Position numbers and translations under genes: made by a program
Part shown: in pieces, positions 40-24,097 of the stretch
How positions within the stretch are numbered: position 1 is the first letter of the stretch
How the letters are laid out: each line of letters opens with the position of its first letter
Source: Pseudomonadota bacterium
Lineage (GTDB): Bacteria > Pseudomonadota > Gammaproteobacteria > Burkholderiales > Burkholderiaceae_C
Length of the DNA: 64,000 bases
Reading direction: 5' to 3'
NCBI GenBank assembly: GCA_029779845.1
Contig: JAKOZT010000064.1
Coordinates: forward strand, 334-64,333
The notes under the pieces: model-generated
The model's input: the letters and a program-made list of their open reading frames with translations, nothing else
Told to the model about the DNA's origin: nothing
Database searches by the model: none

Positions 40-1122
40 TCAGGCGCGCTTCTTCACGCCCACGCTGTAGCTGCCGGTGGCGGCGGCGGTCTTGTGCTTC
101 ACCGTCAGCCAGTACTCGCCCGGCTGCAGCTTGCGCACGATGCGCGCGTTCCTGCCCTGGCCGCGGTCGTCGTCCCAGGTGAGCACGGCGCCGCGGTCGC
201 CCGGGCCGTGCAGCGTCAGCACGGTGTCGGTCGGGCCTTCGGTGGTCATGATGTAGGTGGCGGCGGTGGCGACCGTGAAGTGGAACTCGTCGACTTCGCC
301 GGCCGTGGCCAGCTCGGCGCTGATGCGCTTGCCCATCGCCAGCTCGGTCATCGCCGGCGCGGCCTTCGGGTACTGGCGGCGCATGAACTCGATGTCCATC
401 GCCGAGAACTCGGTGTTCCAGCCGATCGCGTAGGAGCCGATCGTCAGCGAGTCGGGGATCGCGTACTCCATGATCGAGGTCGGGTCGAAGCTGGTGTGGT
501 TGGTGCTGTCCTCCGAATAGACCTGGAAGATGTTGAAGTCGACGTCGCCCTTGTCCCAGCCCTGCTGCGCGTAGTAGGCGTAGACCTTGGGCTTGTCCCA
601 CGGGATCTGCCCCTGCGCGGCCGGGTTCTGGTGCTCGTGGATCATGCCCAGCGCATGGCCGAACTCGTGGCGCACCACGCGCTGGTACTCGCGCAGCTCG
701 GTCGTGGGTTCGAGCCAGCCGTAGTTCATCGTCGCCTTGTCGGCGGCCACGGTGAGCGCGTCGGTGCCCACCGTCGACCACGAGAAGCCCTTCTCGGCGA
801 AGCTGATGCGGATCTGCGCCGTGCCGCTGCTCACGAACTCCAGCTTCAGGTTGGCGATGGCCTCCCACTCCTTCGCGATCGCCTGCACCTTGGCCTGCAC
901 CGCGGCGTTGCCGTCGAGGAACTTCACCTTCAGCGTGCGGCCGTTCTCCCACAGCTTGAGCTTCTCCACCGCGGCACGCGCCCGGCCCGCGCCGCCGCGC
1001 AGCGGCGTGATGCGCGTGTTGCCCACGCGCTCGCGCGCGGCGGCCTCGTCGCTGGACAGGCGCCCAGCCTCGCCGGTGAGGCCGGGCACGAAGGGCGAGC
1101 AGATCTTGCAGGTGTGGGTCAT
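40..1122 (-). CDS. astacin-like zinc metalloprotease (metzincin) with C-terminal PPC pre-peptidase domain, 360 aa, no signal peptide
   Basis: Last 360 codons of track ORF 40..5055. ATG at 1122-1120 (MTHTCKICSPF) with GAGGAAG 5 nt upstream. HEFGHALGMIHEH matches the HExxHxxGxxHE astacin-type zinc site, with a Met-turn-like SIMEY. The tail (GEVDEFHFTV..TLHGPGD..WDDDRGQGRNARI..GEYWLTV..GSYSVGV) fits the PPC domain pattern. The rest of the track ORF upstream is Arg/Ala/Pro-rich read-through. Confidence 0.85.
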   Translation of the reverse strand: MTHTCKICSPFVPGLTGEAGRLSSDEAAARERVGNTRITPLRGGAGRARAAVEKLKLWENGRTLKVKFLDGNAAVQAKVQAIAKEWEAIANLKLEFVSSGTAQIRISFAEKGFSWSTVGTDALTVAADKATMNYGWLEPTTELREYQRVVRHEFGHALGMIHEHQNPAAQGQIPWDKPKVYAYYAQQGWDKGDVDFNIFQVYSEDSTNHTSFDPTSIMEYAIPDSLTIGSYAIGWNTEFSAMDIEFMRRQYPKAAPAMTELAMGKRISAELATAGEVDEFHFTVATAATYIMTTEGPTDTVLTLHGPGDRGAVLTWDDDRGQGRNARIVRKLQPGEYWLTVKHKTAAATGSYSVGVKKRA

Positions 1123-1142
1123 GGAAGGCTTCCTCGGAAGGG

Positions 1143-4100
1143 TCAGGGCCAGGTGCGCACGACTTCGTCGATGACGCGGGCGATCGGCTGGAAGGGCAGC
1201 TCGAGGTGCGCGTTCTGCCACACGACGACGAACTCCGCCGCGTCGCTCCTGCGGCGCAGCCAGGCGCCCTCGGAGAACACCGTGCCGACGAAGGCCGAGC
1301 CGCTGGAGGCCTCGCCGATCTTGCATCCGGTGACCTCGAACGACGAGCCGGCGGTGGCGGTGTGGTCCTTCAGCCAGGTCCAGGGCGCGCCGGCCTCGAA
1401 GATCGTGCGCATGCGCTGGCTGGCGGCGGCGTCGACCAGCGTGCCGCGGTGCAGGTGGGCGAGCAGGCTGGCCATCGCCAGCGCCGTCATCGCGGCCGAC
1501 GACGTGCCGTTGCGCGGGGTCTTGCCGCCGCTGCGCGTGGCCACCGGCACGTGGAAGTCGGGCCAGTTGCCGTAGTCGGCGGTGGTCCAGACGCCGCTCG
1601 CGCTCGCTGCATCGAAGAAGCCGCCTGCTTCCAGCGCGCGGTTGACGTAGCTGTAGCCGAGGCGGTGCATGGTGTCGCGCGGCGTGATGTTCTGGTCCTG
1701 CTCGGAAAAGATCTTCTCGACGCCGTCCGCATGCGTGGCGTGCATCTCGACGCGGAAGCGGTTCGGCCCGTCGGGCAGCGCGCGCAGCGCCTTGTCGAAC
1801 TTCGTCGCGCGCCACTCGCCGGCGCGGTTGATGCGCGCCACCGAGCGCTCGATGGCCGGGCCGAACTCGCGGCGCACGCGGTCGAGGAACTTCGCCGCGG
1901 TGGGCGCCGTCAGCGCCGGCGCCAGTTCGTTGACCTGCTTCACCAGCTCGAAGCTGGCGTACAGCATCGCCACCTTCAGCAGGCTGGCGGAGAAGTACAT
2001 CTCGGTCTCGTGCACGCCGGCGTATTCCATCGTGCCGGTGGGCGTGAGCTTCGCGACCAGCAGCGCGAGCGCGTCGAGCCGGGCCGGGTTGGCGCCGCTC
2101 AGCGTGGCGCGCTGCGTCGCCAGCGCCGCGGCGAGGCGCGCGTTGTGCGCCGCCCCCGGCGTGAGCTGCAGTGCGTAGGGCACGGTCGGGAAGGGGTTGC
2201 GCACCGCGCTGTCGGCCACCGTGCTGCCGGCGATGCGCAGCGAACGCGCCGCGATGTTGGGGTGGTTCACGACCAGGCTGTCGACCGGCGCGGGCGCGAG
2301 CGCCACGTCGGCGCCGCCGCTGCGGATCACCGCCACCAGCAGCACGACGCGCCCCAGCGCCTCGCCGGTCAGGTCGAGGTCGAAGCTGGCGATGCCCGGG
2401 CGCACCGCATCCAGCGTCTGGCCGGTGAGCGTCTGCCGGCTGCCGACCAGGCTCCAGCCGGCGCCGAAGGGCAGCGAGGTCGTGCCCGGCGTCGAGTTCA
2501 GCACGTGGTTGGCCGCGCCGGTCCAGGGGGCGTCGCCCGTGGGCAGGGCGGTGCCCGACCACTTCAGCAGCGCCACGCGAACCTCGCCGCCGTCCAGCGG
2601 CGCGAGGCCGCGGTACTGCACCAGCACCTCCACCTTGCTCGGCCCCGGCGGCAGTTCGCCGGCCATGTCGCTGCCGGTGGGTTCGCGCAGCGTGGGGCCG
2701 AGCTCGATCAGGTCGGCGCTGCCCGGCCGCGCCGGGCCCCAGGGCTCGGCGTTCGCCCAGGGCAGCTGCATGCTCTGCTCCCAGTACGCCTTGCCGATGC
2801 GCACCGTGCCGAGCACGCTGGGTGCGCCGAGCGTGGCGAGCACCTCGTTGAACTGGTTGTCCCACTTGCCGGTGGCGCGCACGCGCGCGTCGCCGGTGCG
2901 CGCGCGCAGCGCGCTCTGGAAGCGCCGCAGCGGCTCGGCTTCGATCAGCGGCGAGCCCATCGTCCACGGCAGCGTGGCCGGCGTGGTCGCGGGGATGGGG
3001 GCGCGGCGTGGCCGCAGGTCGGGGCTGGCGTGCCAGGGGCGGGTCGTCACGCCGTCGCGCCCGGTCAGCGAGGCGGCGGCGCGGTAGCGCAGGTCGTCGG
3101 CGTGGGCGCGCAGGTAGGCGAGGTCCGCCACGTCGTCGGCATCGAGGCGCAGCTCCCACACGCCGCGCGCGGCCAGCCCGGCGCGCAGCAGGCGCAGGCC
3201 GTCGCGGCTGTAGAGCGCGAGATCCTGCACGACAGCTTCGGGCAGGCCGTTGAGAAGCGCGCTCCAGGTCCAGGCCGGCTTGCCCGGGTCGGCGAGGTTG
3301 CGCACGCCCTTCCACACGCCGATGGTCGTGCCGACGTACACCTCGTTCGGAAACGCCGGGTCGCAGGCGATCGCGGTCACCGGGGTGGGAACGGCGGCAC
3401 GAAGCTTGGTGGCGAACCAATGCTCGCCGCCGTCGAACCACCACAGCGTGTCCACATCCTCGGCGGCCGGCTTGCCGACGGTGCCGAGATACACCGCCCC
3501 GCGCGTGCCGCGCGCCACTGGCTCGCCGCCCGGTGCGGCCGGCGGCTCGAGGTTGACGGCGATGTCGGTCCAGGTCGCGGCGTCGCGGATCGGGCCATTG
3601 GCCTTGGTCTCGTCCTTCTTCTGCTTGACGCCGCGCTCGATGATGGTCTGCGCCGTCCACGCGCCCGGGCCGGCCGCCGCATCGCTGCCGGCCGTGCGCG
3701 CATAGCGCCGCAGCCGGCCTTCGCCCAGCACCCAGGCGACTTCGCTGCCCTGCCAGCGGCACACCGTGATGCGCCGGCCGAAGTCGTCGTGCGCGAGGTT
3801 GCCGGCCGGCGGCGCGGCGGCGCCGGGCAGCGTCACCCAGCTGGCGCCGAAGTCTTCCGAGTACCACAGGCGCGAGGTGCCGACGATCGTCTGCGTCACC
3901 GTCTGCTGCCCGGCCGGCGCGCCGGGGCGCTGCTTGGCCGTCATCGCCGGCTGCGAGAGTTCGGCGCTGCGCCCGGCGCGGTTCTCGCCCAGCGCGAGCG
4001 GCAGCGTGATCGCGCCTTGCGACGAGGCCCACTCGCCGTGGTGCAGCTGGTAGACATGCCGCGACGGTTGGTTCGGGTCGAAGGCGATGCCGCCGCCTTG

Positions 4101-6344
4101 CGCGAAGGTGCTGCTCTCGCGCCGCCACGCCGCGCCGCCGAGCCGGCGCGCCACGCCGTGGCGGTGCACGCCGGCCAGCACCATGCCTTCGCACACCGGG
4201 TGGTTGGCGACGTAGTTGATCTCCGCCACCGCGAGCCCGTCGTTCATCGCGACGAAGCCCGAGGGCACGCCGATGCGGTCGCTGCGGTACACGCCGCCAT
4301 CGCTCGCCGCCCACAGGCGCTGGCCGGCGTTGCTGAAGACGACGTGGTGCACGTAGGCATGCACGCCGCCGCCCAGCAGCGCGGCGCGGCCGAAGGCGAG
4401 CGTGCCGCCGAGGCCGGCGGCCACGGGCGCGAGCGTCAGTGCGGCGTCGTCGTCCGCGCCGGCGCGGCGGCCGCCGGCGATCACGACGTGGTCGGGCCGG
4501 GAAGGGTCGACCGCGAGTGCGATCGCATAGCTGCCCGAGTCGCCCAGCACGTCGGGCACGCCGGTCACCGACACGGCGATCGGCTCGGCGGCGGGGTCGG
4601 CCGGAGCGTCGATGCGGAACAGCAGCGGGCGCATCAGCTCGGGGTAGATCGCATTGATCGCCGCCACGTCGCCGGCCGACAGCCCGACGCGCTGGCCGAT
4701 CGCCTGCCCGCCGATCGGCACGATGGTGTCCAGCCGGGTGGCGTCCTTGCTGAAGGCGCGGCGGCCGTAATGCATGATCGAGCCGAAGTCGTAGGCGCCG
4801 ATGTCGTCGCCGTCGCTGATCTGCTGCTGGAAGTTGTGCTCCTCGCCGCTCTTGATGTTCTCGGTGAGCACGCGCACGAAGCTGTTGCGGTCCTCGCGGC
4901 TCTGCTCGTGCCACAGCCCGAGCGAATGGCCGATCTCGTGCACCGCCGCGCCGAAGCCGCAGCCGGTGCCCAGCGAGATCACCTGCTTGCCGCCCTGCAT
5001 GCCCACCGGCGAGAAGCAGCCGTCGAGCGCCTCGAACGAGATCCAGTTCGGGCACACCGCCGCGTTGGCCGGCGTGCGCTCGACGAAGCGGATGCGCGTG
5101 CGCGCCTGCCAGTGCGCGATCGCCGATTCGACCAGCGGGCGCAGCGCGGCGATGGTCTCCCAGGGCACCACGCCGCCCGGCCAGCGGTAGCGCTCGCCGG
5201 TGATCGCGACGCCGAAGGGCACGCCGCCGGGCCGCGCGGCCGCCTTGCGCATGCGCTCCATCTCGGTGGCGGGGCCGAGGTCGATGTCGCCTTCGAAGAT
5301 CGTGCGGCCGCCGATCTCATTGCAGTCCACCGCCTTCACTTCGCCGCTGTCGATCAGGCGCACGAAGCCCTGCTGCTTGCGCGGCGAGGAGCGGAACCAG
5401 CAGCCGCAGTCGTCCGGCGGCAGCGCGGCCGCCGCCGGCACCTCGGGCCGGGCGCTGTGCGGCAGCGGCGCGCCGCCGGGGGCGCCGGCCACGCTGGTGG
5501 CCGCGCCGGGCTGGTCGCAGAACAGCCAGATCTGCTGCGGGTTCACCGCCGCCAGCACCGCGCGGCGCGCGACCGCGCCGGGCGCCTGGATGCGCCGCCA
5601 GTCGGCGCCGGCGGCGTTGGCGGCGCGCATCCACAGCCCGGCGTTCGCGCCGCTCTCGACCCACACCCACCAGCGTGTCGGCAGCGTGCCGGCGGCGGGT
5701 GTCCACAGCACGTCGGTGCAGATCGCGTCCAGCGTCTCGAACGGCGCGCCGGCCACGCGCTGCCACGCGGCGGCGGCATTGGTGGCGGGACGTTCGTACA
5801 AGCCGCTGCTGGTGGCCGCGACGATGCGCGTGCCCGCGCCCGGCTCGATCGCGATGCGGTAGACGCTGGCGCCGAGCAGGTCGGCCGCTTCGTGCGCCCA
5901 GGCGACGTTGCCGCTGGCCAGCGTGTGCGTGCCGACGAAGATGCTCACCCCGCCGAGCGGCTGCCCCGGCGCCGCGCCGATGTGCTGCGCGCGCGGCGCG
6001 GCCGGGTCGTGCCAGGGCTCGCCGGTGCCGAGCACCACGGTGTCGCTGGCGGTGCCGAAATTGACCGCGAGCGCGCCGCAGGCGAAGCGGCTCGCGGCGC
6101 GGTCTATCGTCTGCGGCGAAGGCGTGGGCTCGAAGCCGTCGAGCGAGCGCCATGACGCACCGCCGTCGCCCGAGTACCAGAGCCCGCCGTTGGCCGTCGC
6201 CGCGTAGACGCGCTCGCCGTCCGGATGCACCGCCAGCGCGTTGACCGCGCCGCTGATGCGCCCCGCGCCCTGCACCTCGCCGTTGAGCAGCGTGTGCGGC
6301 CCGAGCGGCTGCCACAGATGCGTTCGCGAGGTGGGTGCACTCAT
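1143..6344 (-). CDS. 1733-aa multidomain protein: BNR/Asp-box beta-propeller-like regions, embedded astacin (M12A-like) protease domain, C-terminal beta-lactamase/transpeptidase-like serine hydrolase domain
   Basis: Distal part of track ORF 1143..9611. ATG at 6344-6342 (MSAPTSRTHLWQP) overlaps the upstream stop as ATGA. Asp-box-like motifs are present (SGDGGASWRSL, SEDFGASWVTL, ASDGGVYRS). Astacin signature RWPGGVVPW ... HEIGHSLGLWHEQSREDR (nt 4905-4940) ... SIMHYG; domain at about nt 4641-5216. The last ~300 aa (about nt 1146-2040) carry FSASLLK (S-x-x-K, nt ~1975-1995), YSYVN (Y-x-N) and CKIG (K-x-G). No N-terminal signal peptide. Confidence 0.85.
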   Translation of the reverse strand: MSAPTSRTHLWQPLGPHTLLNGEVQGAGRISGAVNALAVHPDGERVYAATANGGLWYSGDGGASWRSLDGFEPTPSPQTIDRAASRFACGALAVNFGTASDTVVLGTGEPWHDPAAPRAQHIGAAPGQPLGGVSIFVGTHTLASGNVAWAHEAADLLGASVYRIAIEPGAGTRIVAATSSGLYERPATNAAAAWQRVAGAPFETLDAICTDVLWTPAAGTLPTRWWVWVESGANAGLWMRAANAAGADWRRIQAPGAVARRAVLAAVNPQQIWLFCDQPGAATSVAGAPGGAPLPHSARPEVPAAAALPPDDCGCWFRSSPRKQQGFVRLIDSGEVKAVDCNEIGGRTIFEGDIDLGPATEMERMRKAAARPGGVPFGVAITGERYRWPGGVVPWETIAALRPLVESAIAHWQARTRIRFVERTPANAAVCPNWISFEALDGCFSPVGMQGGKQVISLGTGCGFGAAVHEIGHSLGLWHEQSREDRNSFVRVLTENIKSGEEHNFQQQISDGDDIGAYDFGSIMHYGRRAFSKDATRLDTIVPIGGQAIGQRVGLSAGDVAAINAIYPELMRPLLFRIDAPADPAAEPIAVSVTGVPDVLGDSGSYAIALAVDPSRPDHVVIAGGRRAGADDDAALTLAPVAAGLGGTLAFGRAALLGGGVHAYVHHVVFSNAGQRLWAASDGGVYRSDRIGVPSGFVAMNDGLAVAEINYVANHPVCEGMVLAGVHRHGVARRLGGAAWRRESSTFAQGGGIAFDPNQPSRHVYQLHHGEWASSQGAITLPLALGENRAGRSAELSQPAMTAKQRPGAPAGQQTVTQTIVGTSRLWYSEDFGASWVTLPGAAAPPAGNLAHDDFGRRITVCRWQGSEVAWVLGEGRLRRYARTAGSDAAAGPGAWTAQTIIERGVKQKKDETKANGPIRDAATWTDIAVNLEPPAAPGGEPVARGTRGAVYLGTVGKPAAEDVDTLWWFDGGEHWFATKLRAAVPTPVTAIACDPAFPNEVYVGTTIGVWKGVRNLADPGKPAWTWSALLNGLPEAVVQDLALYSRDGLRLLRAGLAARGVWELRLDADDVADLAYLRAHADDLRYRAAASLTGRDGVTTRPWHASPDLRPRRAPIPATTPATLPWTMGSPLIEAEPLRRFQSALRARTGDARVRATGKWDNQFNEVLATLGAPSVLGTVRIGKAYWEQSMQLPWANAEPWGPARPGSADLIELGPTLREPTGSDMAGELPPGPSKVEVLVQYRGLAPLDGGEVRVALLKWSGTALPTGDAPWTGAANHVLNSTPGTTSLPFGAGWSLVGSRQTLTGQTLDAVRPGIASFDLDLTGEALGRVVLLVAVIRSGGADVALAPAPVDSLVVNHPNIAARSLRIAGSTVADSAVRNPFPTVPYALQLTPGAAHNARLAAALATQRATLSGANPARLDALALLVAKLTPTGTMEYAGVHETEMYFSASLLKVAMLYASFELVKQVNELAPALTAPTAAKFLDRVRREFGPAIERSVARINRAGEWRATKFDKALRALPDGPNRFRVEMHATHADGVEKIFSEQDQNITPRDTMHRLGYSYVNRALEAGGFFDAASASGVWTTADYGNWPDFHVPVATRSGGKTPRNGTSSAAMTALAMASLLAHLHRGTLVDAAASQRMRTIFEAGAPWTWLKDHTATAGSSFEVTGCKIGEASSGSAFVGTVFSEGAWLRRRSDAAEFVVVWQNAHLELPFQPIARVIDEVVRTWP

Positions 6345-9300
6345 GATGAGCTTCCCTCCGGCTTGGCCGGCGCCACGCGGATCCAGCCTTCGCGGAACTC
6401 CGCCGGCGTGTCGGGCAGCAGCGCGGTCTGCGTGGCGGCGAGGATGGCGTCGCTGCGCCAGCTCGCCGGCGTGTCGCGCCAGAGGAAGTTCTGGTCCTTG
6501 CCGAACACCGACACCTTGGGCAGGCGCACCTGGCCTTCCTTCGCGAGATCGGTCTCCACCAGCACCGGCCCGGTGCGCAGCGAGGGCGCGATCGCCTGCA
6601 GGCCGGGGCCGACCCAGTCGCGCGCCAGCGCCAGCGCCTTGCGCGGCAGCAGGCCCGAGCTGAGCGTGGCCTTGCCGGCCGGGTGCATGAAGATCGTCAG
6701 CGTCACCGTCTGGCCGAGGTGCAGCAGCAGCGTGTCGGCGTCGTCGCTGCCGGCGATGTACGGGTGCACGATGGCACTGGCCGCCGGCAGCCCGGCCGAC
6801 CGCGCGAACACGCCGAGCTGGCCGCGGCTGCGCCCGGCCTCGGGTGCGATGCCGGCGATCGCCTTGTCGACGAGGCGGAAGCGCGAATAGTCGTCGTCGA
6901 CGAAGAAGCCGAGCACGCCGTCGTCGCTGCGCGTCAACTCGCCGATGCGCACCGGGAAGGCGTGGCGCGCCGCCTCCTGCTCGGCCTGTGCCCACTCGGC
7001 GGCGCGCTGCGGGTCGCTCAGGTCGATGTCCTCGGGCGGGCGCAGTTCGAGGCGCAACTGCGCGCGCACCACCGCGATCGGCCGGCCCACCAGCCCGGCG
7101 ACGTGCTCGCTGCCCAGCGAGGCGAAGCTGTCCACCGTCCACAGCGTGGTGTCGATGGCGCGCAGCAATGCCGACAGCGCGCTCTCGGCGGCCGTGTCCT
7201 CGCCCACCGGCGTGCCGCCGCGCGCGGCCGCGTCCGCCGCCACCAGCGCGGCGGCGAAGTCGGCCAGCGGCTTCTGCGCCGGCGCGAGGCCATGGTGCGG
7301 GCCGGCATCGGCCGGGCCTTCGCGGCCGGCGGCGATCTCCCACATCACGCCGCCGCTGACCGGCTCGTGCAGCAGCTCGCCGATAGCCGCGCCGTCGGCG
7401 CCGAACACTTCCAGGCTCTCGTCGAGGTGGTCGGGCATCACGAAGCCGGCCACCGGATTGACCTGCAAGGCCGCTTCGATCTGGTCGACGCGCGCTTCCG
7501 TTCCTTCGGCGCCCGGCGGCGTCGCCGCATCGACGAGGCGGAACAGCCAGCGCGCCGGGCGCAGCAGGCGCGGGCGCAGCAGCAGCGCGCCGGCGCGGTC
7601 GGGCAGCGTCTCGCGCGTAGTCGTGATGACGCCCTGCACCGGCAGCTCCAGCGTGCGGCCGAAGGCGTCGAGCACACGTGCGCGCGTCAGCGTCGCGCAG
7701 CCGGCCAGCAGCAGGTGTGGCGGCGCGGTTGGCGCGGGGTTGCTCACGCCGCTGGCGGCGCTGGGCCGGTGCAGGCCGTCGCGCGCCGGCAGGCCGAGCA
7801 GCTGCGTGCGCAGGCCGTCGCAGGTGGCGGTCATCACGTCGAGGTGCTGCACCGCGCTGTCGAGCACGCGGTAGGCGTCTTCCAGCGCTTCGTCGACCTG
7901 GCCGGCGCCGTCGTCGTCGAGCGCGTCTTCGGCCTTCAGCCAGTCGCTGATCGCGTCGTGCAGGGTCTTCGCGGCGCCGCTGGTCAGCGGCGCGCGGCCG
8001 CGCAGCGTGGCGGTGTCGCCCTCGAACGTCGTCGTGCTGCCTTCGAGATCCACCGCGCCGAGCTGCCAGGCCTGCAGCGTCGGCGGGTCCAGCCCCTCGA
8101 CCTTCAGCTCCCATTCCAGCCACAGCGGCACCCAGGGCTGCGCCCAGGTGCTGACGCCGACGAGATCCGGGTCGGCGCCCTTGTAGAGCGAGAACTTGCG
8201 CAGCTCGTCGGACACCAGCGATTGCTGCTCGCGCAGGCCGGGGCGAACGCCTTGCGCCGGTGCGCGCGCGCTGCGCGACGGCGAGCGGGCGAGCGTCGCG
8301 GCCAGCACCGCGGTGCCGCCGTCGTAGGCGCCGTCGCGCCCGAAGCGCAGCACCGATTCGGCCTTCAGCCGCGTCAGCAGCGCGTTGCGGCCGGTGCCGG
8401 GCGGTGCCAGCGCGGCGGCGATCCATTCGTCGTGATACGGGTCGTGCAGCAGCGCTTCGCGCGACAGCGTCAGCACTTCCGGCGGCAGCGAGCCGTTGCC
8501 CAGCGAGCGGATGAAGCGGTCCTTCGCGATCACGCCGTCGATCTCGGCGATCACGTGCGTGGGCCAGCGGCAGCTCAGCTTGCCGTCGGCCGAGCCGCGC
8601 CCGTCGTTGCCGTGGCGCAGGCTGCGGCCGGCGCCGCGCAGCGCGAGCATCGGTTCGGTGGGGAAGGCGAAGCGCGGCGCGGGGTGGTCGACCACGCGCG
8701 CTTCGGTGGGCGAGAGCACGTCGCCGACGCGCGAGCGGGCGAGGTCGTTGATCAAAGCCTCGGTGGCCTTGATCAGGTTCGGCTTGCCCTGGGTCGCGAA
8801 GTGCGTCTCGGCCTGCAGCTTCGGGCCTTGCGCGCCGAGCACGTTTTTCGTAGCCTTGGTCTGCGCCGTGAGGCCGACACGCTCGCCGCGCTTGCGCCCG
8901 AGACCCAAGCCGCCCGCGCCGCCGGTCTGCACGCGCTGCAGAAAGCGGTCCGTGCCGGCCGAGCCGGCCGGCAGCGACGCGAAGGCGATCGTGTGTTCGT
9001 GCTCTTCCAGCGCCACCGCGCCATCGGGCGAACCCAGCTGGTTGACTTTCTGCGCGGTGAAGGCGGTCAGCAGCCGCTCGGTGGCGCGGCGCTGCTCGGG
9101 CGTGGCCTGCGCGGCGGCGAAGGCGGCGATCAGGTCGTCGTCGTGCAGGCCGAAGGCGATGCTCACCGCTTCGGCGGCGGGGCGCCGGTCGATGCCCGCC
9201 GCGCCCGTCACCGGCACGCCGTGGATCGCGCCGTGCAGCAGCGAGGAACGCAGCTGCCAGGCCGGCGCGGTGTAGCGCTGCGCCGCGTCGGCGGCGAAAA

Positions 9301-10345: not shown

Positions 10346-10346
10346 G

Positions 10347-13571: not shown

Positions 13572-13602
13572 AGCAGGGGGGCAGCAGATACCGGTTTTCA
13601 TT

Positions 13603-16600: not shown

Positions 16601-19600
16601 CCGGGCTTGGCGGCGATGTCCAGCGCCTGGATCAGCGGGTAGTCGCCGAACTTCGCGAGGTCGCTCGGCAGGCGCATCAGCCGGTTGATGCCGAAGCCGC
16701 CGCCGATGCCGGTGAGGAAGAAGGCCGGCGGCCCGCCGATCGGCCCGTTGACCGCACCGATCGCGAAGAAGGCGGTGAAGCGCTGGCCGTTCTCCTCGCC
16801 CTCGCCATAGCCGCCGTAGACCGTCAGGCCGTAGACCGCGAAGCGGCCCAGCAGCATGCCGAGGTACTCGATGTTCGGCGCCACGCCCTGCTTGAGCAGG
16901 CCGCCGGCGATGGACACGCCGGCCATGTCGGCCGAGACCGCCAGGCCGGCCAGGTCGATGGACCAGCTGCCCGGGTTGAAGAAGTCGTTGTTGCCGACGA
17001 AGTAGGTGATCTGCAGGTCGTCGACCGCGCAGGTCAGCCCGAACATGGACACCGAGCCGTCCATCAGCAGCGAGATGCGCTCCAGGCGGCCTTGGGGCGA
17101 GGCGGCGCCGAAGCCGATCTGCTCGAGGTACAGCGGGCCGAAGCCCTTCTGGATCGCGATCCACCACGGCCCGGTGCCGTCGCCTGCCGTGAGCGACACC
17201 TGCACCGCGCCGCCGTCGTGCGCCTGGATCGCCAGCGCGGGCGAAAACGCCGGCTTGGGCGGCGTCGGCCCGGTGTCGCGCATCACGCCCTGCGCGATGC
17301 CGTTGTCGCCCTTGGCGCCGGAGGCCGAGACGGCGAGATTCGAGAACTGCAACTGCGCGCCGCCGCCCTTGACGCCGGCCGCCGTGATCGCGGCGAAGAC
17401 GTGCAGCGCGATGGATTCGAGCGTGATGCCGGCGTCGAGCAGCGGCCCGGAGCGCTTGCCGACGCGCAGCCCCAGGCCGTTGACGACCAGGCTGGGCTCG
17501 AAGCGCAGCGGCAGCGTGGGCGGGATGAAGCCGACGAACAGGCCGCCGTCGTCCGTGCCGGACGCGCCGTCGATCCAGCGCGCATCGTTCTCCAGCCACA
17601 GCGACACGTCGCCTTCGACCAGCGCGAAACGATCGCCCACGCCGACCTGCAAGCCGATCGTGCCGGTGTCGTCGTGCTGCTTGAACGCGAGCACGAAGTC
17701 GTCGATCGTGATCGTGATGCCCGCGCCGGCGATGTTGGTGAAGAGGCGGTGGAAGCGCGCGAGCAGCGTGGCCGGGTCGAACAGGCCGTCGATGAGCTGC
17801 GCGTTGTCGGCCGGATCGAGCACCACGCCTTCGAGCAGGAAGCGCACGTTCCGGTCGCCGACTTCGGTGTCGAGCAGATCCTTCACCGGCTGCTGCGCCA
17901 TCGCGACGGCGGCCACCAGGTCGGCGACGATGTCGACGATGCGCAGCGCCACCTGCGCCGGGTCGGCGGTGGCCACGGCGGTGGCGAGCGCGCCGTCGCT
18001 GGCGACGATGTCGAAGCCGCCGCCGTCCAGCCTCCAGCGCGCCGCGAAGTGGTGCGTGTCGTCGGCCGAGAGCCCGACCATCACGCGCCGCCCGCCGGCC
18101 GGCGCGAGGCCGGCGGCCACACTCGCGAACGGCCGCAGCCGCACACCGCCGGCGTCTATGTCGGCGGGGCCGAGCGCGACGCTCAGTTCGTCGAGGCCGG
18201 CGGCGCTGATGGCCAGCGTCAGGCCCAGCGTCTCGATGCCCGGCACGGGGATGCCGGGCACGCTGATCGCGACGCGGCTGGAGGCGGGGCGCCAGGAGAG
18301 CGTGAAGAGATCGTCGACGGCGACACGCAGCTCGTTGACGTCGCCGCTGGCGCTCACCTGGGCGGGCAGGAAGTCGTCGAGGATGGGCGCGATCAGGTTC
18401 AGGCCGGTGGCGGTGATCGAAGGCACCGCCGCTGTCAGCGCGCCCACAGGGTTGGCAGCCCATTGCCGCAGCGCCTCGGCGCTGAAGGCTTTGGGCGTGC
18501 CGGCGCGCAGCGCCAGCGCATCGCCGACGGTGCGCACCAGATTGCCCGGCGTGCCGGGCAGCTCGGCGAGCTTGTCGAGCAGGAAGGGCAAGGCCGCCTC
18601 GGCCGCCGCCGCGAGGCCGCCCAGGCCGGCGAAGGGCACCAGCGCAATGTCGGCGCCGCTGGCCGGGCGCAGGAAGAGTTCGACGCCGGCGTTGCCGATG
18701 CGCGTGTGCACCGCCTGGCGTCCCGGTTCGGCGCTGTCGAGGCCGAGATGCGCTTCGAGTGCCACGCGCGGAGCGCCGCTCAGGCCCACCGCGAGGCTTG
18801 CGCCGATCGCGCCCGACAGGCGCGCACCGCCGCCGCCCGGCGCGGCCCACACGCTCGGATCGACCGCGATGAGCAGCCGCGCGCCGCCACCGTCGGCGCT
18901 GACCGCCAGACTGACGCCGTTGGCGATCGACAAGGGCGAGCCCGGCGCACCGGTCAAGCCCATCAAGGGGCGCAGCGCGTCGAAGAGGGTCTGGATCTTC
19001 AGCGGATTGGCAGCAAGGGATTCCGCGCTGCGCAGCCAGCCCGCCGGGTCGGCCAGCAGTCCGGGGAGCGGGCGCAGCGCGCGCTCCGCGTCGCCGGCTG
19101 TGCCGGCGAGCATGCCGAAGGCATCCAGCATCGCGTCGATCAATGGCCGCGCTTCTTCGTCGGCGCGGCGCATCAGTTCGAGCGCGACGTGCGCCGCGAG
19201 GCTGGGCGCCGCCTGCGCGAGCAGCCGCGCGAGCGCCTCGCCATCGGGCGCCGGCCACAGCGGCGCGATCGCCGTGCGCGTGCTGCTCTGATGCCAGTGC
19301 AGATCGACCGCGAAGGGGTTCAGCGCGATCTGCAATTGCACGCCGCCGACGGTGGGCAGCGCCGTGCCGGGGCCGACGCTCAGCGTGCCCGTCAGCCCGG
19401 CGGGCGACGCGCTGACATCCGCCGCCCAGCCGAAACGCCCCGTGCCGCTGCCTTGCACATGCACCGCGTGCGCGGCTAGGTCGACGCTGGCGCCCAGCGG
19501 GCCGAGCAGCGCATTGACCGCCGATGCGAGCTGCCCACCGGCCGCGGCAAGCCGCTGGCGGATCAATCCGGCCGGGTCGTGCACGAGTTGGTCGACCGCA

Positions 19601-22600
19601 TCGCCGACCACGCCGCCATTCACGCCGGTCAGCCCGAGCGCGGCGAACAGATTCGACAGCGCCAGCGAACGTGCGCTGCCCAGGTCGGCCGTCAGCCGCT
19701 GCACCGCGGCGGAGAGCAGCACACGCGCCTCGGGCAGCACCGGCAGCGCGTCGTCGCCGATCGCGCCGAGCGCCAGCGCCTCCCATGACTGGCCGAACAC
19801 ACGCGCTTCGTGCAGCACCACGCGCGCTTCGCCGGGCGAGCTGCCGTCCAGCGGCAGCGTCAGCACGGCCGACAGCGCGCGCAGTTCCAGTTCGGGCGTG
19901 GCGGCGAGCCAGCCGAGTGCATCGCCGATGCGCAGCTCGATGCGAAGTTCTTGGTCGTGTGCGATGCCTCCCGCGAGTTCGTAGCCGAACAGCCGCAGCT
20001 GCGCGCTGGCGCGGATGCGCAGCGTGCCGCTGTCGTCCTCGGGCAGCGCCCAGCGCAGGCCGGCGTGCACGCCGCTGGGCAGCGCAGCGGCGACGTCCCC
20101 GAACGCGGCACGCTCGGCGGCGCGCGAAGCGATGCCGGCGGCGACGATGGCGGTGAGCGCCTGCGCGATGCGTTCGGCCGGCACATCGCCGAACACCGCC
20201 TGCACCGCCAGCCCGGCGCGCGGCGCTTCGGGCGGCGCCACCGGCGGGCGCAGATCGGCGGCCGGGTCGGCCAGCGGCGCGAGTTCCATCAGCGCGCCGA
20301 CCAGCGCGCGGCCGAGCGCGAGGTCGTCGTTCTCGGTGCTGTCGGCCGGCGGCAGCAGGCGGTCGAGCAGGCGCAGCGCATCGGCGGTGGGCTGCACGCT
20401 GAGCGCGGTCAGCGAGATCGGTGCCAGCGGCGTGCCCAGCAGCACGAGGTCGGTGACGGCGACGCGCGCGGCCGGCTGCACCGCGAGGCGCGCCGCGTGG
20501 CCAGCACCGGCCAGGGCGACGACGGCGATGTCGCTGGCGACTCCCGCCAGCGCATCGAACACGCGGCCCAGGCGCGCGGCCTGCTCGGGCGTGCCGTCCG
20601 TGCTGCTGCCGGCTAACTTGCAATCGGCGCGAGTGCCGAGTGCGACGAACCACTCGCCCGCTTCCACCGCCGGCAGCGTGAACATCGCGGCGTCGAGCCC
20701 GGCGGTGCTGAGGTCGATGAGGCGATCCTCCGGCGCATCGGGCCAGGCGTTCGCGCCGAGCGCGACGTAGACCGTGGTCGTCGGCGTGCGGCCGAGCGCT
20801 TCGGCCAAGTCGAGCTGCCCGAGCAACTGCCCCGCGGCGCAGCCGACGCGCTTCAGCGTGATGCCGGCCGGTGTGCTCGCCGGCGGCGCGATGCGCCCGT
20901 CGCCGGCCAGCCAGCGCTGCGCGATCGAATCGAAGGCGGTCTCCAGCTCGCGCCCTTCGAGCAGCGCACGAAGGTCGGCTGCCACGCTCGCCTCGGCACG
21001 CAGCGCGGCGGCCAGCGCCACGGCCGGCAGGCCCGCATCGCCCGATTGCCAGTTGCGGATCGCATCGGAAGCCGCGCTCGCCAGCGGCGCCAGCCCTTCG
21101 GGCGGGAACCACACGGCGATGTTGGGCAGGCCCTCGGCGAGCGCGAAGTGGTACGGGTCTTCCGGCCGCCCGCTGCCCTCGATCACGCCGCGCGCCGCGC
21201 CCAGCCCGCCGAACGCATCGGCGACCAGCGCCAGCGCGTGCTCGCCCAGCTCGCTCATCGCCAGGCGCGGCAGCCAGTCGCGCAGCGCCGCTTCGGGCGA
21301 ATGGATCAGGTCGCCGAGGCGCAGCCGCGCGACGTTCACGTCGGTGGCCGGCTTCCAGCCCAGCGCGTTGACCAGCTCGGCCAGCGTGCCGCCGATCATG
21401 TCGCCGAGGTAGCCGGCGAGTGCCTCCACGCCGTCCCAGGCTTCGTCGGGCAGCGTGACGCTGCCATCGCTGCCGATGACCGGCAGCGTGATGGGCACAT
21501 TCACATCGGCGAGTTCGAGGCGCAGATGCGGCGCGCTGACCTCGGCCGCGAGCCCGCCCTCGGGCGCCCACGCGAGCCGCAGCCCGACGTGATCGGCAAC
21601 GACCGCCGCCGCATCGCCCAGCGCCAGCCGCGCGCGCTTCGGGTCGGCGCCGCGTTCGCGCGCGGTGAGCGTCGCTTCCACCGCGCCGAGCAGGCTGGCG
21701 CTGCGCGCGGCGAGGTCGATGCGCGCCAGCGCGACGGCGATGCGCGTCTCGACCACGGTGCAGCGCTGGCCGAGCGTGTCGATTTGCGTCGCGGCGCCCA
21801 GGCCGACGTTGAGCACGTCGCCGCTGGCCGACACTTCGAGCGCCAGCGGGCCGATCAGCGGCAGCCGCCACGGCGTGGCCGCGCTGCCGTCGCCGTCGAC
21901 GATGGATACGGCTTCGCTGGCATCGGTGAGCGCGAGGCGCAGCGCCGAGAGCACCTGGCGCGCCGCCGCGTCGTTGGTGACGAGCTGCCGCCAGTAGCCC
22001 ACCACCGCGGCCACCGGGTCGGCCATCAGCGCGGCGAGTGTCACCGCCGGAATGCCGGCGGGGGGCGAGAGCCCGAGCAGCTGCCGCGCCAGCGCGAGCG
22101 CATCGCCCAGGCCGGCGAGCAGTTCGCCCGCGATGTCTTCCACCGCGTTGCCGGCGGCGTCCATCACCGCGTCGGGCGAGGTGAGGTCTAGCGTGGCGTA
22201 GTCGTGCGTGCCGATGCGCACCGCGTCGGCGGCGAGCACGAAGTTCAGGTGCCGCTGCGCGTCGAGCCCGAAGCCCAGGCGCAGCGTGTCGGCGCGCACC
22301 ACGGTGGGCGCGGTGAGGTCGAGGATGCGCGCGCCGCTGCGCCCGGCCGCGGCCCACACGCCCAGGCTGGGCAGCGCGAAGGCCTGGCCGCTGACGAGGT
22401 CGATGCGGAAGATGTCGGCGCGCGCCTCGACGCGCGCCGCGTCGTTGCCGAGTTCGACCGCGAGGCTGGGCGTCAGCAGCGGGTTGCCGCTGGGGCCGCT
22501 GGCCATGCGCAGCGCGAGCGTCAGCTGCGCGACGCCGCCGAGATCGAAGCGCACCGCATCGCCGACGCGCGCGCCGCCCACCAGCGCGGCGAGGTGGCCC

Positions 22601-23463
22601 AGCCAGTCGGCGCGGCTCGCGTCGGCGGTGAGGATGCCGCGCACCCAGTCGGCCAGCGCGAGCGCGCCGCGCACGGGCAAGGTGGTGATCGGGAAATCGG
22701 GCACCGCATCGCCGCTGCGCAGGCCGAGCAGCCCGGCCACCGCGACCAGCGCCGGATGCGCCAGCGCCGCGTCGGCCTGCGCCTTCACCAGCGACATCAC
22801 CAGATCGAGCAGCGCGTCGTCGAGCTGGTCGGCGCCGTTGGCCGAGACGCGCATGTCGCGCGGCGCGGCGGCGCCGGGCAGTTGCAGGCCGGTGAGCGCG
22901 AGGCCGAAGACGGGGCCTTGCGGGTCGGTCGGCGAGGTGGGCAGGTCGACTTCGAGCCCGATGCCGCCCAGGCGCGCCTGCCCCGGCACCGGCGCATTGC
23001 CGTCGATGGTGATCGTGGTGGCGACGCGGATGCGCCCGCCCGCCGAGCCGAGCAGCAGCGGCTGGCTGACCGCCGGCCCGCCCTGCTTGTGCGCGCGAAA
23101 CAGCGGCAGCGCCAGCGTGGTGGTCGAGGCCGGGTCGGTGGTGGCCACGCGCAGCCCCAGGCCGATGTGCAGGCCGTCGCTGCGGCCCTCGTCGATGGTG
23201 ACGGCCACCGCCAGCGGCGGGTCGTCGATCTCGACGATCGGCAGCCAGGTGACGCCGCCTTCGCTGCTGCGATCGGCGCCGCCCATCGCCTCGTCGACGA
23301 AGGCGATCAGCGCCGCGCGCTGCGCCTCGTTGGCGAGCATGTTCTTCAGCGACTCCTCGGGGTGGGCGAACCATCCCTGGTTGGGGTTGCCCGAGGCGTC
23401 GAACAGGCCCAGCGCTTTCGCCAGGTGGCCGAGCACGCCGAGATCGCCGCTGGTCATGCCCAT
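13603..23463 (-). CDS. giant hypothetical protein, 3286 aa, with beta-rich DUF6603-like core
   Basis: Complete track ORF (MGMTSGDLGVLGHLAKALGLFDASGNPNQGWF..) with balanced composition across its whole length. The competing same-strand ORF 13598..23374 is Arg-rich junk. ATG at 23463 has GAGG about 8 nt upstream. The core at about nt 15810-17000 (GGLLKQGVAPNIEYLGMLLGRFAVYGLTVYGGYG..FFLTGIGGGFGINR..GGYHPDF..VTFEVGPIELTFEFGG) resembles Pfam DUF6603 from memory; this is unverified. Confidence 0.85.
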   Translation of the reverse strand: MGMTSGDLGVLGHLAKALGLFDASGNPNQGWFAHPEESLKNMLANEAQRAALIAFVDEAMGGADRSSEGGVTWLPIVEIDDPPLAVAVTIDEGRSDGLHIGLGLRVATTDPASTTTLALPLFRAHKQGGPAVSQPLLLGSAGGRIRVATTITIDGNAPVPGQARLGGIGLEVDLPTSPTDPQGPVFGLALTGLQLPGAAAPRDMRVSANGADQLDDALLDLVMSLVKAQADAALAHPALVAVAGLLGLRSGDAVPDFPITTLPVRGALALADWVRGILTADASRADWLGHLAALVGGARVGDAVRFDLGGVAQLTLALRMASGPSGNPLLTPSLAVELGNDAARVEARADIFRIDLVSGQAFALPSLGVWAAAGRSGARILDLTAPTVVRADTLRLGFGLDAQRHLNFVLAADAVRIGTHDYATLDLTSPDAVMDAAGNAVEDIAGELLAGLGDALALARQLLGLSPPAGIPAVTLAALMADPVAAVVGYWRQLVTNDAAARQVLSALRLALTDASEAVSIVDGDGSAATPWRLPLIGPLALEVSASGDVLNVGLGAATQIDTLGQRCTVVETRIAVALARIDLAARSASLLGAVEATLTARERGADPKRARLALGDAAAVVADHVGLRLAWAPEGGLAAEVSAPHLRLELADVNVPITLPVIGSDGSVTLPDEAWDGVEALAGYLGDMIGGTLAELVNALGWKPATDVNVARLRLGDLIHSPEAALRDWLPRLAMSELGEHALALVADAFGGLGAARGVIEGSGRPEDPYHFALAEGLPNIAVWFPPEGLAPLASAASDAIRNWQSGDAGLPAVALAAALRAEASVAADLRALLEGRELETAFDSIAQRWLAGDGRIAPPASTPAGITLKRVGCAAGQLLGQLDLAEALGRTPTTTVYVALGANAWPDAPEDRLIDLSTAGLDAAMFTLPAVEAGEWFVALGTRADCKLAGSSTDGTPEQAARLGRVFDALAGVASDIAVVALAGAGHAARLAVQPAARVAVTDLVLLGTPLAPISLTALSVQPTADALRLLDRLLPPADSTENDDLALGRALVGALMELAPLADPAADLRPPVAPPEAPRAGLAVQAVFGDVPAERIAQALTAIVAAGIASRAAERAAFGDVAAALPSGVHAGLRWALPEDDSGTLRIRASAQLRLFGYELAGGIAHDQELRIELRIGDALGWLAATPELELRALSAVLTLPLDGSSPGEARVVLHEARVFGQSWEALALGAIGDDALPVLPEARVLLSAAVQRLTADLGSARSLALSNLFAALGLTGVNGGVVGDAVDQLVHDPAGLIRQRLAAAGGQLASAVNALLGPLGASVDLAAHAVHVQGSGTGRFGWAADVSASPAGLTGTLSVGPGTALPTVGGVQLQIALNPFAVDLHWHQSSTRTAIAPLWPAPDGEALARLLAQAAPSLAAHVALELMRRADEEARPLIDAMLDAFGMLAGTAGDAERALRPLPGLLADPAGWLRSAESLAANPLKIQTLFDALRPLMGLTGAPGSPLSIANGVSLAVSADGGGARLLIAVDPSVWAAPGGGGARLSGAIGASLAVGLSGAPRVALEAHLGLDSAEPGRQAVHTRIGNAGVELFLRPASGADIALVPFAGLGGLAAAAEAALPFLLDKLAELPGTPGNLVRTVGDALALRAGTPKAFSAEALRQWAANPVGALTAAVPSITATGLNLIAPILDDFLPAQVSASGDVNELRVAVDDLFTLSWRPASSRVAISVPGIPVPGIETLGLTLAISAAGLDELSVALGPADIDAGGVRLRPFASVAAGLAPAGGRRVMVGLSADDTHHFAARWRLDGGGFDIVASDGALATAVATADPAQVALRIVDIVADLVAAVAMAQQPVKDLLDTEVGDRNVRFLLEGVVLDPADNAQLIDGLFDPATLLARFHRLFTNIAGAGITITIDDFVLAFKQHDDTGTIGLQVGVGDRFALVEGDVSLWLENDARWIDGASGTDDGGLFVGFIPPTLPLRFEPSLVVNGLGLRVGKRSGPLLDAGITLESIALHVFAAITAAGVKGGGAQLQFSNLAVSASGAKGDNGIAQGVMRDTGPTPPKPAFSPALAIQAHDGGAVQVSLTAGDGTGPWWIAIQKGFGPLYLEQIGFGAASPQGRLERISLLMDGSVSMFGLTCAVDDLQITYFVGNNDFFNPGSWSIDLAGLAVSADMAGVSIAGGLLKQGVAPNIEYLGMLLGRFAVYGLTVYGGYGEGEENGQRFTAFFAIGAVNGPIGGPPAFFLTGIGGGFGINRLMRLPSDLAKFGDYPLIQALDIAAKPGEPMAQLRALGNYFPMKKGTFWFAAGLSFNSFALVDGIAVVGVQIGDGLDINLMGLARMALPRPQAAIVSIELALLVRFSSSEGVLWVQGQLTDNSWLLYPDIKLTGGFAYVIWFKGEKAGEFVLTLGGYHPDFHRDGYPVVPRLGLRWSIGDNIVIKAGSYFALTSEALMAGGDFEASAHFGPAWAEVKFGAHGIVYFDPFHYDVMAYARIAAGVTIDTWLFGEITISIHLGARIHVLGPEFRGSVTFEVGPIELTFEFGGDGKEQKQPLAADAFILKYLEAADSGKARPHALMTNTGALPAKGEDSTPDGSSSRPFVVVVEFSMTFTSTVPASRVTRTLAPAAQATSNHAPSRALGVAPMDKANVTPTIVISWRRNGVDQPYPFVDRARPFGRFPVGVWGLPQDPNARKVPKAEMIEALSELDMVCSATPTPGGPEIPYYQVEIGKRKPLPFTRRAVEINAQRNAAKSVSELLAAPTSVDAAFASARDFLASRASPTALAALRGERQAPPRLGTLTEGLEAATPITVPDTAEPPAPKVYDHFVDAPLVVGLLAGATVGIAAAAKVRTTVKGSERAWRTAPPTLAGVEAQRSRSVAAKLVVTDTPAMNGREGGAATLIAAQSVPPSAVAHGATALVARRGTPLAAPLAEFGSALAVGSTLRAARAGASAANSPGAALATGQTVVLKLPNARADAAPEGRRPRLVVTGAPARVVLLAHGGRTIADVLVGPEMQRDNLEIPQGTERIVAIGQGVVQRAGAAAGARIGLAGWHAGMQLPYAGWGSAIGPGCVARSAGERLMPHRERLEAGWVGGAELARGVSTVTTTFSIPARTVLIALDDPAASGEPIEARQLLLGLDGAARALDAAGNERAPVLLAMDNRSVLAYDIVPEGGQGDIRPVVVTIASEQGWSLVGVMASAEVDATGAVALVASRGLDAAMQPFAAMNPAEGAATSRIAWVAPTRSADERATAKARAQGGTAVMALARRMARGSQRTSRGRR

Positions 23464-23473
23464 GGCGGCCGCC

Positions 23474-24097
23474 TCACTTCGGCGCCTTCAGCGTCGACGA
23501 ACCCGAGAAGCGGTGCCGCGCCATCGGCAGGATCTGGATGCCGCGCGCGCTGACCGCCAGCTCCACCGGCACCAGCAGGTTGCCGCGCGCGTCCTTGCCG
23601 GTGGCCGCGGCGATGCCGGTGACCAGGCCCAGCACGCATTGCCACGCAAAGGCCACCAGCGCATCGCCCCAGGCCGCGACCACCACTTCCGACCCGTTCG
23701 GGCGGCGCGCGGTGGCGGCGTACAGGCCGGCCGGCTCGCTGGGCGAGCCGGTGGCGAACAGCACCTCGACGCTCGCCGCGCCGCTCTGGTCGCAGCGCAC
23801 CGGGATGCGCACGCGGATCAGCCCGTCGGCGAGCTTGACGTCGACGCCCGCGATGCCCACCGCCAGCTCGTTCTCGCCCTCGACCCACACCACTTCGCTG
23901 CGCTGGGTGGGGCGGAAGAAGCCGGCGGCGCGGCGCGAGGCCACGCGCAGCAGCTCGACGCTGCGGCCCGCGGCGATGAACACCGGCTCGAAGACATCGC
24001 CCTCGGCCATCTTGCGCGCGGCCAGCGCCGGCAGGCGCTTGGCGCGGCGCTCGGCCTCGACGAATCGCGCGAACTCCGGGGCGACGGTCTCGGTCAA
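23474..24097 (-). CDS. hypothetical protein, 207 aa (first gene of operon)
   Basis: Complete track ORF (MTETVAPEFARFVEAERRAKRL..). The start codon is TTG (plus strand caa at 24095-24097) with AGGAGGG 4 nt upstream. The stop lies 10 nt before the giant gene start. No recognisable domain. Confidence 0.65.
   Translation of the reverse strand: MTETVAPEFARFVEAERRAKRLPALAARKMAEGDVFEPVFIAAGRSVELLRVASRRAAGFFRPTQRSEVVWVEGENELAVGIAGVDVKLADGLIRVRIPVRCDQSGAASVEVLFATGSPSEPAGLYAATARRPNGSEVVVAAWGDALVAFAWQCVLGLVTGIAAATGKDARGNLLVPVELAVSARGIQILPMARHRFSGSSTLKAPK

Follow-up and report, generated by a model that had tools for sequence, protein, structure and literature searches.

A syntenic, leaderless gene cluster around a giant DUF6603 protein as a candidate mobile conflict system

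What kind of system is encoded by seven consecutive genes whose products are in part gigantic, carry no export leader and for the most part resemble nothing in the protein family collections? The question is raised by a stretch of 64,000 nucleotides from a Pseudomonadota bacterium assigned to the Burkholderiales and probably Piscinibacter-like (contig JAKOZT010000064.1, positions 334 to 64,333; hereafter the window, meaning this stretch at its full length), in which seven minus-strand genes, here called g1 to g7 (Table 1), had been singled out from the letters alone in a preliminary description as a candidate undescribed system. Our analysis bears out that proposal, in that the genes are a co-inherited unit matching no characterised machinery tested, and further indicates that they probably form a mobile conflict system of a new kind, a toxin or immunity machine whose hydrolase effectors can be swapped, since enzyme and binding cassettes that are exchanged around a conserved core are a hallmark of biological-conflict systems.

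A conserved gene order and its unrecognised proteins

The strongest evidence for a system, as opposed to a chance run of genes, comes from its relatives. Scanning one genome per species with a g3 profile yielded 80 loci, which were searched by tblastn with all seven proteins; g2, g3, g4 and g5 are collinear and equally oriented in 68 of the 68 loci where all four are detectable, across seven phyla, so that the co-localisation proposed earlier as a check on the system holds in other genomes. These loci come from Burkholderiales (Piscinibacter, Variovorax, Ideonella, Ramlibacter, Caldimonas), Xanthomonadales, Gemmatimonadota, Acidobacteriota, Chloroflexota, Actinomycetota and Myxococcota. At g2/g3, g3/g4 and g4/g5 the genes most often meet in a stop/start overlap, and overlapping codons in a fixed order imply co-translation in fixed proportions. 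Downstream of this core, g6 follows in 50 of the 53 loci with sufficient sequence and g7 in 23 of the 53, g5 adjoining g7 directly in the three genomes that lack g6; upstream, g1 always precedes g2 and was found directly 5' of it in more than 60 metagenome loci by a separate g1 scan. Neither beyond g1 on the upstream side nor downstream of the cluster are there conserved genes, except upstream among near relatives. Amino-acid identity between phyla amounts to 55-76%, being highest for g4 and lowest for g6, which indicates that the cluster is transferred horizontally as a whole and is strongly constrained. A phage origin was considered and rejected, as neither a tblastn search of 50,697 phage genomes nor the IMG/VR contigs returned any homologue.

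All seven proteins were scanned with Pfam, NCBIfam, PADLOC (5027 models, PADLOC-DB v2) and PHROGs, and sequence and profile searches were run against the PDB. The preliminary description had found no recognisable motif in g1, g3, g4 and g5, and indeed none of them has a match in the four collections; for g2, where it had suspected a DUF6603-like core, DUF6603 (PF20248) is the sole match in the same collections and is firmly placed at aa 2104-2586 (380.2 bits, E 1.9e-113, against a gathering score of 27 bits). A permissive Pfam scan of g1 to g5 (E <= 10) adds nothing further, the PDB sequence and profile searches give no credible match for g1, g2, g3, g4, g5 or the DUF6603 domain, and 25 homologues of g5 scanned one by one show no consistent Pfam match. 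Paralogy among the seven proteins was rejected at two levels, BLAST linking only the g6 astacin domain with g7 and an all-against-all hhalign comparison of 29 profile chunks recovering only weak repeats within g2.

The individual proteins nevertheless have features of their own. g2 consists of an N-terminal extension of ~2000 aa, the DUF6603 core (aa ~2050-2700) and a C-terminal extension of ~600 aa; the N-terminal extension contains weak internal repeats (aa 316-498 versus 540-738, hhalign probability 84%) and makes the protein about two to three times longer than the usual DUF6603 proteins, with the compact members of which it shares only the region of aa ~2050-2700. DUF6603 itself is only a label for a domain without an assigned function, and no paper in the searchable library deals with it, its accessions (PF20248, IPR046538) or representative locus tags. 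g1, the first gene of the conserved cluster, encodes a basic protein (pI 9.7) whose homologues align over a near-invariant hydrophobic stretch, WG[DE]ALVAFAWQCVLGL (aa 143-160), that may represent either a membrane-spanning helix or an interface buried in the protein; nothing else in the cluster is a candidate for a membrane element. g3 has at least 1501 homologues, every one of them annotated as hypothetical, and g4 is the most conserved core component, reaching 3149 representative clusters (50% identity) at E <= 1e-3 in a phmmer search of 1.84 billion representatives.

Fold-level comparison covered g4 alone among the core proteins. An AlphaFold2 model of g4 based on an alignment with 82 diverse representatives has an alpha/beta fold with a predicted local distance difference test (pLDDT) value of 85.9 and a predicted TM-score (pTM) of 0.76, while a model from 48 close homologues reached a pLDDT of 47. 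Foldseek returned no neighbour of the model in the PDB (best E 0.24, TM <= 0.14) or in BFVD (best E 0.07), and the predicted fold is without a detectable relative among solved or viral structures, including the PDB entries for baseplates, the type VI secretion system (T6SS) and Tc toxins. The profile searches and this one structure search hence assign the unrecognised proteins to no known system; such an assignment would have spoken against an undescribed one.

Compact relatives, exchangeable slots and the hydrolases

Beyond the large format lies a much wider circle of smaller clusters, in which the usual DUF6603 proteins, whose full domain is contained in g2, stand in the same order with g3/g4-like and g5-like genes. 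A tblastn search of plasmids with g4 led to distant homologues on replicons of Streptomyces, Embleya, Kitasatospora and Paenibacillus, where a DUF6603 protein of ~900-1100 aa is followed by a g3-then-g4 protein of 685-745 aa and then by a g5-like protein of 930-1210 aa. Taken overall, the compact clusters comprise 3-5 genes, with DUF6603 proteins of 900-1600 aa, fusion proteins of 685-915 aa in which a g3-like segment precedes a g4-like one, and g5-like proteins of 930-1330 aa after the fusion; some phmmer matches of g4 are the C-terminal portion of such fusions, of 650-900 aa. The fusions speak for g3 and g4 working as one unit, and the universal core is a DUF6603 protein together with g3/g4 and g5. 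About 8 kb upstream of the compact cluster on the Paenibacillus polymyxa plasmid p-YT9A (L160, 1-1879) there is a giant gene annotated as 'phage baseplate assembly protein V', in the company of genes for a pentapeptide-repeat protein, an ankyrin protein and a fragment of a GH-E nuclease, which together have the look of a polymorphic-toxin locus in its own right.

A mid-size format, traced through a DUF6603 profile search and look-ups of gene context, is very common and occurs in Parafrankia EAN1pec (Franean1_4404), Hyalangium versicolor, Allosphingosinicella, Streptomyces cinnamoneus and metagenomes. The slot upstream of DUF6603 in this format holds a gene whose stop overlaps the DUF6603 start and whose enzyme varies by genome, the domain matches all lying above the Pfam gathering scores: an LCAT-like alpha/beta-hydrolase, that is a lipase, in Hyalangium (21.7 bits), a metallo-beta-lactamase (MBL)-fold enzyme (Lactamase_B) in two loci (30.4 and 34.3 bits), and an EEP enzyme (Exo_endo_phos; 28.7 and 29.5 bits) which is directly upstream in one locus and two genes upstream in Candidatus Paracaedibacter acanthamoebae PRA3. 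The latter, an obligate amoeba endosymbiont, carries a compact version bracketed by insertion sequence and transposase genes (CP008941.1; L156, 3718-18125), composed of the EEP enzyme, DUF6603, a fused g3-g4, a g5-like protein and a Lactonase propeller.

A second variable slot is that of the last gene, occupied by a fifth family with a common N-domain of ~290 aa and unrelated C-termini, among which are a phage-fibre-type Peptidase_S74 'chaperone of endosialidase' module in Hyalangium (24.5 bits), the Lactonase-type beta-propeller of Paracaedibacter (75.7 bits) and several unrecognised ones. Two such genes stand in tandem in one locus (L167, 20745-22493 and 22490-24085), their products being 89% identical over the first 285 residues and unrelated thereafter, which by analogy is a polymorphic-cassette signature akin to those of tail fibres or polymorphic toxins. 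Homology of the N-domain to g6, g1 or g2 was sought with hhalign and not found. Two Streptomyces proteins, from S. cinnamoneus (L162, 10001-15490) and S. roseifaciens (P0488), are fusions of DUF6603 to a Lactonase propeller, suggesting that the propeller proteins bind the DUF6603 scaffold. Neighbouring genes often encode transposases, Tn3 elements, integrases, a CHAT protease system, TerD/vWA or Fic proteins. In a single lineage, a LexA-type repressor gene lies ~500 bp upstream of the mid-size cluster on the opposite strand (L164/L165, 5756-6370), a position that hints at SOS-linked regulation.

In the window under study the recognisable enzymes are found in g6 and g7. A map of high-scoring segment pairs across loci assigns the conserved core of g6 to aa 1-280 and 573-1371; the astacin insert (aa ~335-570) lies between these segments and matches Pfam PF01400 at aa 402-567 (E 8e-44, 150 bits), with the zinc site HEIGHSLGLWHE (HExxHxxGxxHE) at aa 469 and a SIMHY Met-turn at aa 522. 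Its nearest solved relatives are the tolloid proteases BMP1/TLL1 in the PDB (E 1e-33), and the NCBIfam LegP-like family is matched at 238 bits, under the family cut-off. g7 is a homologue of myroilysin (PDB 5gwd, E 7e-55; 5gwd/5czw/5zjk at E ~1e-54 over aa 48-253) with the zinc motif HEFGHALGMIHEH, a SIMEY Met-turn and a beta-rich C-terminal domain; it matches the NCBIfam AbsR1-like family and is grouped with the SCO6992/AbsR1 MMP-like proteins, of which the homologue SCO6992 influences antibiotic production in Streptomyces (PMC9705864). Ahead of its metzincin domain (aa 1-40) runs the motif C(K/M)ICSPxVPG...ERVDNxR(V/I)xPL, kept in Gram-negative and Gram-positive homologues free of signal peptides (L007, L015, L043-L045, L063, L065), which may act as a pro-segment with a cysteine switch, such as myroilysin has, or may mark the protein for loading onto the proposed complex.

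Both domains thus share HExxHxxGxxH(E) and SIM(H/E)Y with the astacin/myroilysin metzincins (MEROPS M12; LegP, myroilysin, SCO6992/AbsR1) but, unlike these, lack a signal peptide, and the g6 astacin differs from the secreted astacin zymogens in sitting inside a 1733-aa putative propeller protein. A hydrophobicity and motif scan detected no N-terminal hydrophobic leader in the seven proteins or in g6 and g7 homologues of Gram-positive hosts, and no match to the Walker A motif GxxxxGK[ST] in the seven, the only loose one being ATRSGGKT at aa 1602 of g6; both absences, previously read from the translations, therefore stand.

The other distal domains that had been named fare less well than the two metzincins. 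The beta-lactamase-like C-terminus of g6 stays below threshold (Beta-lactamase2, 20.5 bits over 47 aa where the cut-off is 22, with SLLK at aa 1454) and has no PDB relative at E < 0.03, no Pfam match to a PPC domain appears at E <= 0.01, and the BNR propeller is weakly supported, by two Asp-box motifs (aa 58 and 829), NCBIfam F510_1955 at 38.7 bits (cut-off 175) and, with the family profile, PDB 3b7f at E 4e-5 over 36 residues. At 40-50% identity, against 60-76% for the core, g6 also evolves more rapidly, and enzyme domains come and go in it: only 4 of 50 homologues carry the astacin insert, and the C-terminal extension (aa 1372-1733) is confined to 5 loci, all from the closest Piscinibacter and Ramlibacter relatives. 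The picture of a seven-gene operon ending in three hydrolase domains consequently needs qualification, for g7 is optional and the astacin insert and C-terminal extension are restricted. We take the hydrolases to be exchangeable modules, accessory or effector in kind, and the hydrolase-rich seven-gene form is a lineage-specific elaboration of the smaller universal core.

Layout of the cluster in the window

The gene calls themselves are secure. At a window G+C of 73%, the G+C content at third codon positions (GC3) is 0.84-0.98 in a single frame per segment, the frame switches match the borders of the seven minus-strand genes, and each reading frame closes with one terminal stop, so that coordinates, lengths and start codons agree with those given previously (Table 1).

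Table 1. Features of the cluster, with positions counted from the first nucleotide of the window
Feature	Position	Strand	Size	Basis	Remarks
g1	23474-24097	minus	207 aa	GC3 frame	TTG start 4 nt after GAGGAGGG
g2	13603-23463	minus	3286 aa, 336 kDa	GC3 frame	DUF6603 giant protein
g2/g3 spacer	13379-13602		224 bp	inverted repeats	REP-like palindromic insertion
g3	11366-13378	minus	670 aa	GC3 frame	core protein
g4	10347-11369	minus	340 aa	GC3 frame	core protein
g5	6341-10345	minus	1334 aa	GC3 frame	core protein
g6	1143-6344	minus	1733 aa	GC3 frame	modular protein with astacin insert
g7	40-1122	minus	360 aa	GC3 frame	myroilysin/AbsR1-like metzincin

All six junctions likewise read as they had been described: a 10-nt gap with TGAGGCGGCCGCC-ATG between g1 and g2, an ATGA overlap between g3 and g4 (11366-11369), TGAcATG between g4 and g5 (10345-10349), a further ATGA overlap between g5 and g6 (6341-6344), a 20-nt spacer containing GAGGAAG between g6 and g7, and the wider gap between g2 and g3. 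The repetitive extragenic palindromic (REP)-like filling reported for that gap was found as four copies of a palindromic CTTCGACAAGCTCAGG unit within 13421-13563; the unit has 6 matches in the window against 0.05 expected, the other two at 55389-55446, and at both sites, which are intergenic, it forms inverted pairs. Since 49 of 66 other loci have g2 overlapping g3, the spacer represents a local REP-like insertion and not an operon break; it is particular to this lineage and lies outside what is conserved.

No tRNA or Rfam element marks an island border in the 64-kb window. Two upstream open reading frames (ORFs; 24143-24940 and 25260-26867) were ruled out as cluster members, being conserved only among near-identical contigs; the product of the second (minus strand, 535 aa) belongs to no Pfam family and has low-complexity, adhesin-like segments. 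Farther along, a stand-alone 160-aa HAD_SAK_2 protein (27938-28420, minus strand; E 6e-21), corresponding to the HAD domain of 'Swiss Army Knife' RNA-repair proteins, adjoins a Crp-family regulator at 28798-29697, and the stretch 30001-32740 has the lowest G+C of the window (0.64 versus ~0.73) and includes a 707-aa ORF (30617-32740, plus strand) that belongs to no Pfam family.

What the cluster may do, and what it may mean

The mode of action that we favour, speculatively and with a probability of roughly 40%, is that of an outward-directed toxin complex functionally analogous to the Tc (ABC) toxins. The core proteins, that is the DUF6603 protein g2 together with g3, g4 and g5, would assemble in the cytoplasm as one large stoichiometric complex; signal peptides, recognisable NTPase motifs and secretion components are all lacking. 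This complex would hold or present interchangeable effector enzymes along with a variable target-binding protein, the effectors being, in this window, the astacin domain within the putative propeller protein g6 and the putative Cys-switch metzincin zymogen g7 and, in relatives, the LCAT-like lipase, MBL-fold hydrolases and EEP phosphoesterases encoded upstream of DUF6603. Made without leaders, it would be released by lysis or another route, after which a propeller or fibre module would bind the target cell and the hydrolase would be delivered or exposed. We favour this outward direction because propeller or fibre modules, like polymorphic C-terminal cassettes, commonly serve target recognition, because no NTPase or nucleotide-signalling sensor is visible, and because the set of enzymes resembles effector repertoires.

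The likeness to Tc toxins extends to multi-gene operons, giant leaderless subunits without NTPases, occurrence in Gram-negative and Gram-positive hosts, horizontal mobility, and accessory hydrolases and receptor-binding modules in which the payload varies while the core is conserved. The cluster has no conserved transmembrane protein, and Tc toxins, too, do without NTPase, signal peptide and conserved transmembrane protein. The resemblance ends at the level of the components, since gene number and sizes differ and there is no sequence or, for g4, structural similarity: TcA VRP1, pore or neuraminidase-like domains are absent from the seven proteins (Pfam, E <= 0.01) and from g1-g5 even at E <= 10, and for TcB/TcC no RHS/YD or SpvB match was obtained with Pfam or NCBIfam, nor any Y.YD in the motif scan. 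Several considerations, moreover, weigh against a released toxin complex. The cluster contains no identified component for export, lysis or membrane insertion and no immunity-like small gene beside the enzymes; none of its components is homologous to a known translocator, sheath, tube, RHS cocoon or pore; and an identical leaderless cluster in monoderm and diderm hosts is more simply explained by an intracellular role. The S74 fibre, lipase, MBL and EEP observations come from one to two loci each, that a complex forms at all is something we infer from gene coupling and fusion, and, with g4 as the only fold model, g2, g3 and g5 might be remote relatives of a known machine.

This last point leads to a view which we hold to be improbable, namely that the cluster is akin to an injection or toxin machine already known (Tc/ABC, extracellular contractile injection system (eCIS), T6SS baseplate or another pore-forming translocator) but has diverged beyond the reach of sequence profiles. 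The Tc-like giant leaderless subunits, the missing ATPase, the associated hydrolases and the propeller or fibre modules would all fit, as would the phage-type S74 chaperone domain of one relative, and fold-level comparison extends to g4 only; eCIS, tailocins and T6SS baseplates also resemble the cluster in combining a conserved structural core with variable effector or fibre genes at the cluster ends, and the S74 domain recalls them as well. Set against this are the lack of any VRP1, TcA pore, RHS, SpvB, sheath, tube, gp25, Baseplate_J, VgrG or PAAR match, which for g1-g5 holds even at E <= 10, the absence of the cluster from the phage genomes and IMG/VR contigs, and a confident g4 model unlike any baseplate or Tc structure in the PDB. 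Across the seven proteins no sheath, tube, gp25, Baseplate_J/TssF, TssG or VgrG/PAAR match was found in Pfam, NCBIfam or PHROGs, no AAA+ gene is present, and no relevant Pfam match points to RTX repeats or a beta-barrel translocator. The exclusion of Tc/RHS, T6SS/eCIS and RTX/autotransporter systems in the preliminary description is thereby upheld for their defining domains. 

An intracellular immune system, anti-phage or anti-plasmid and of the abortive-infection type, in which the core senses infection and frees an interchangeable effector (metalloprotease, lipase, MBL-fold enzyme or EEP nuclease/phosphatase) inside the producing cell, is the main rival, though one that we consider fairly unlikely. 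It would account for every protein being leaderless in Gram-positive and Gram-negative hosts and for the want of immunity genes, a swappable effector on a conserved core is a typical defence pattern, and the transfer between phyla, with copies on plasmids or near transposases, Tn3, a CHAT protease system, TerD/vWA and Fic toxins, is in the same vein; CBASS, Avs and Lamassu, similarly, join a conserved core to alternative hydrolase effectors and are patchy, horizontally transferred and close to mobile elements. These systems differ, however, in being much smaller and less conserved, and the cluster has neither a match among the 5027 PADLOC models nor a recognisable sensor NTPase, cyclase, nuclease or nucleotide-signalling domain in its core. 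Conservation across phyla is unusually high for defence, 24 kb and ~8000 residues would be an extreme investment, the BNR/Lactonase propellers and the S74 fibre-chaperone module suggest surface binding, and one host is an obligate amoeba endosymbiont. The earlier dismissal of an NTPase- or nuclease-based defence system is hence upheld as regards Walker A and PADLOC, but the want of a recognisable NTPase or nuclease does not by itself exclude a role in defence. Least probable of all, in our estimation, is a non-conflict scaffold, cytoplasmic or on the cell surface, nanocompartment-like or cellulosome-like, that would organise hydrolases for scavenging, envelope remodelling or development. Strong conservation and translational coupling are typical of structural assemblies, and the variable enzyme gene directly upstream of the scaffold gene is reminiscent of encapsulin cargo genes; the effect of the g7 homologue SCO6992 on Streptomyces antibiotic production (PMC9705864) would also be in keeping with such a role. 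A patchy distribution driven by horizontal transfer, with mobile elements nearby, and tandem polymorphic C-terminal cassettes speak against it, and a set of lipase, EEP, MBL and metzincin enzymes is more in line with the repertoires of toxins or effectors than with one coherent metabolic pathway.

We rate the system as new in kind by the evidence so far, the fold-level comparison being that of g4 only. A more far-reaching proposal, which we put forward tentatively and regard as possible rather than probable, is that the core module represents an unrecognised class of machine: a self-contained, ATP-independent, leaderless particle that packages interchangeable hydrolases and finds its target through polymorphic propeller or fibre proteins. 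It would share neither fold nor ancestry with Tc toxins, phage-tail-like injectors or any secretion system, and would have spread horizontally over eight or more phyla, with Bacillota and an obligate amoeba endosymbiont among the hosts. Public data contain upwards of 3000 g4-family clusters at 50% identity, yet no Pfam family exists for, and no paper was found on, g3, g4 or g5. The compact forms of 3-5 genes in culturable Streptomyces and Paenibacillus make the system experimentally tractable. The slots with their varying enzymes and targeting modules point to a natural plug-and-play design, for which a use in protein delivery is conceivable. Should the core prove to be a machine for delivery or immunity not described before, a major and hitherto unrecognised player would be added to microbial conflict in soils, sludge and symbioses, and the core would also be a source of new protein folds, the g4 model being already without a structural neighbour.

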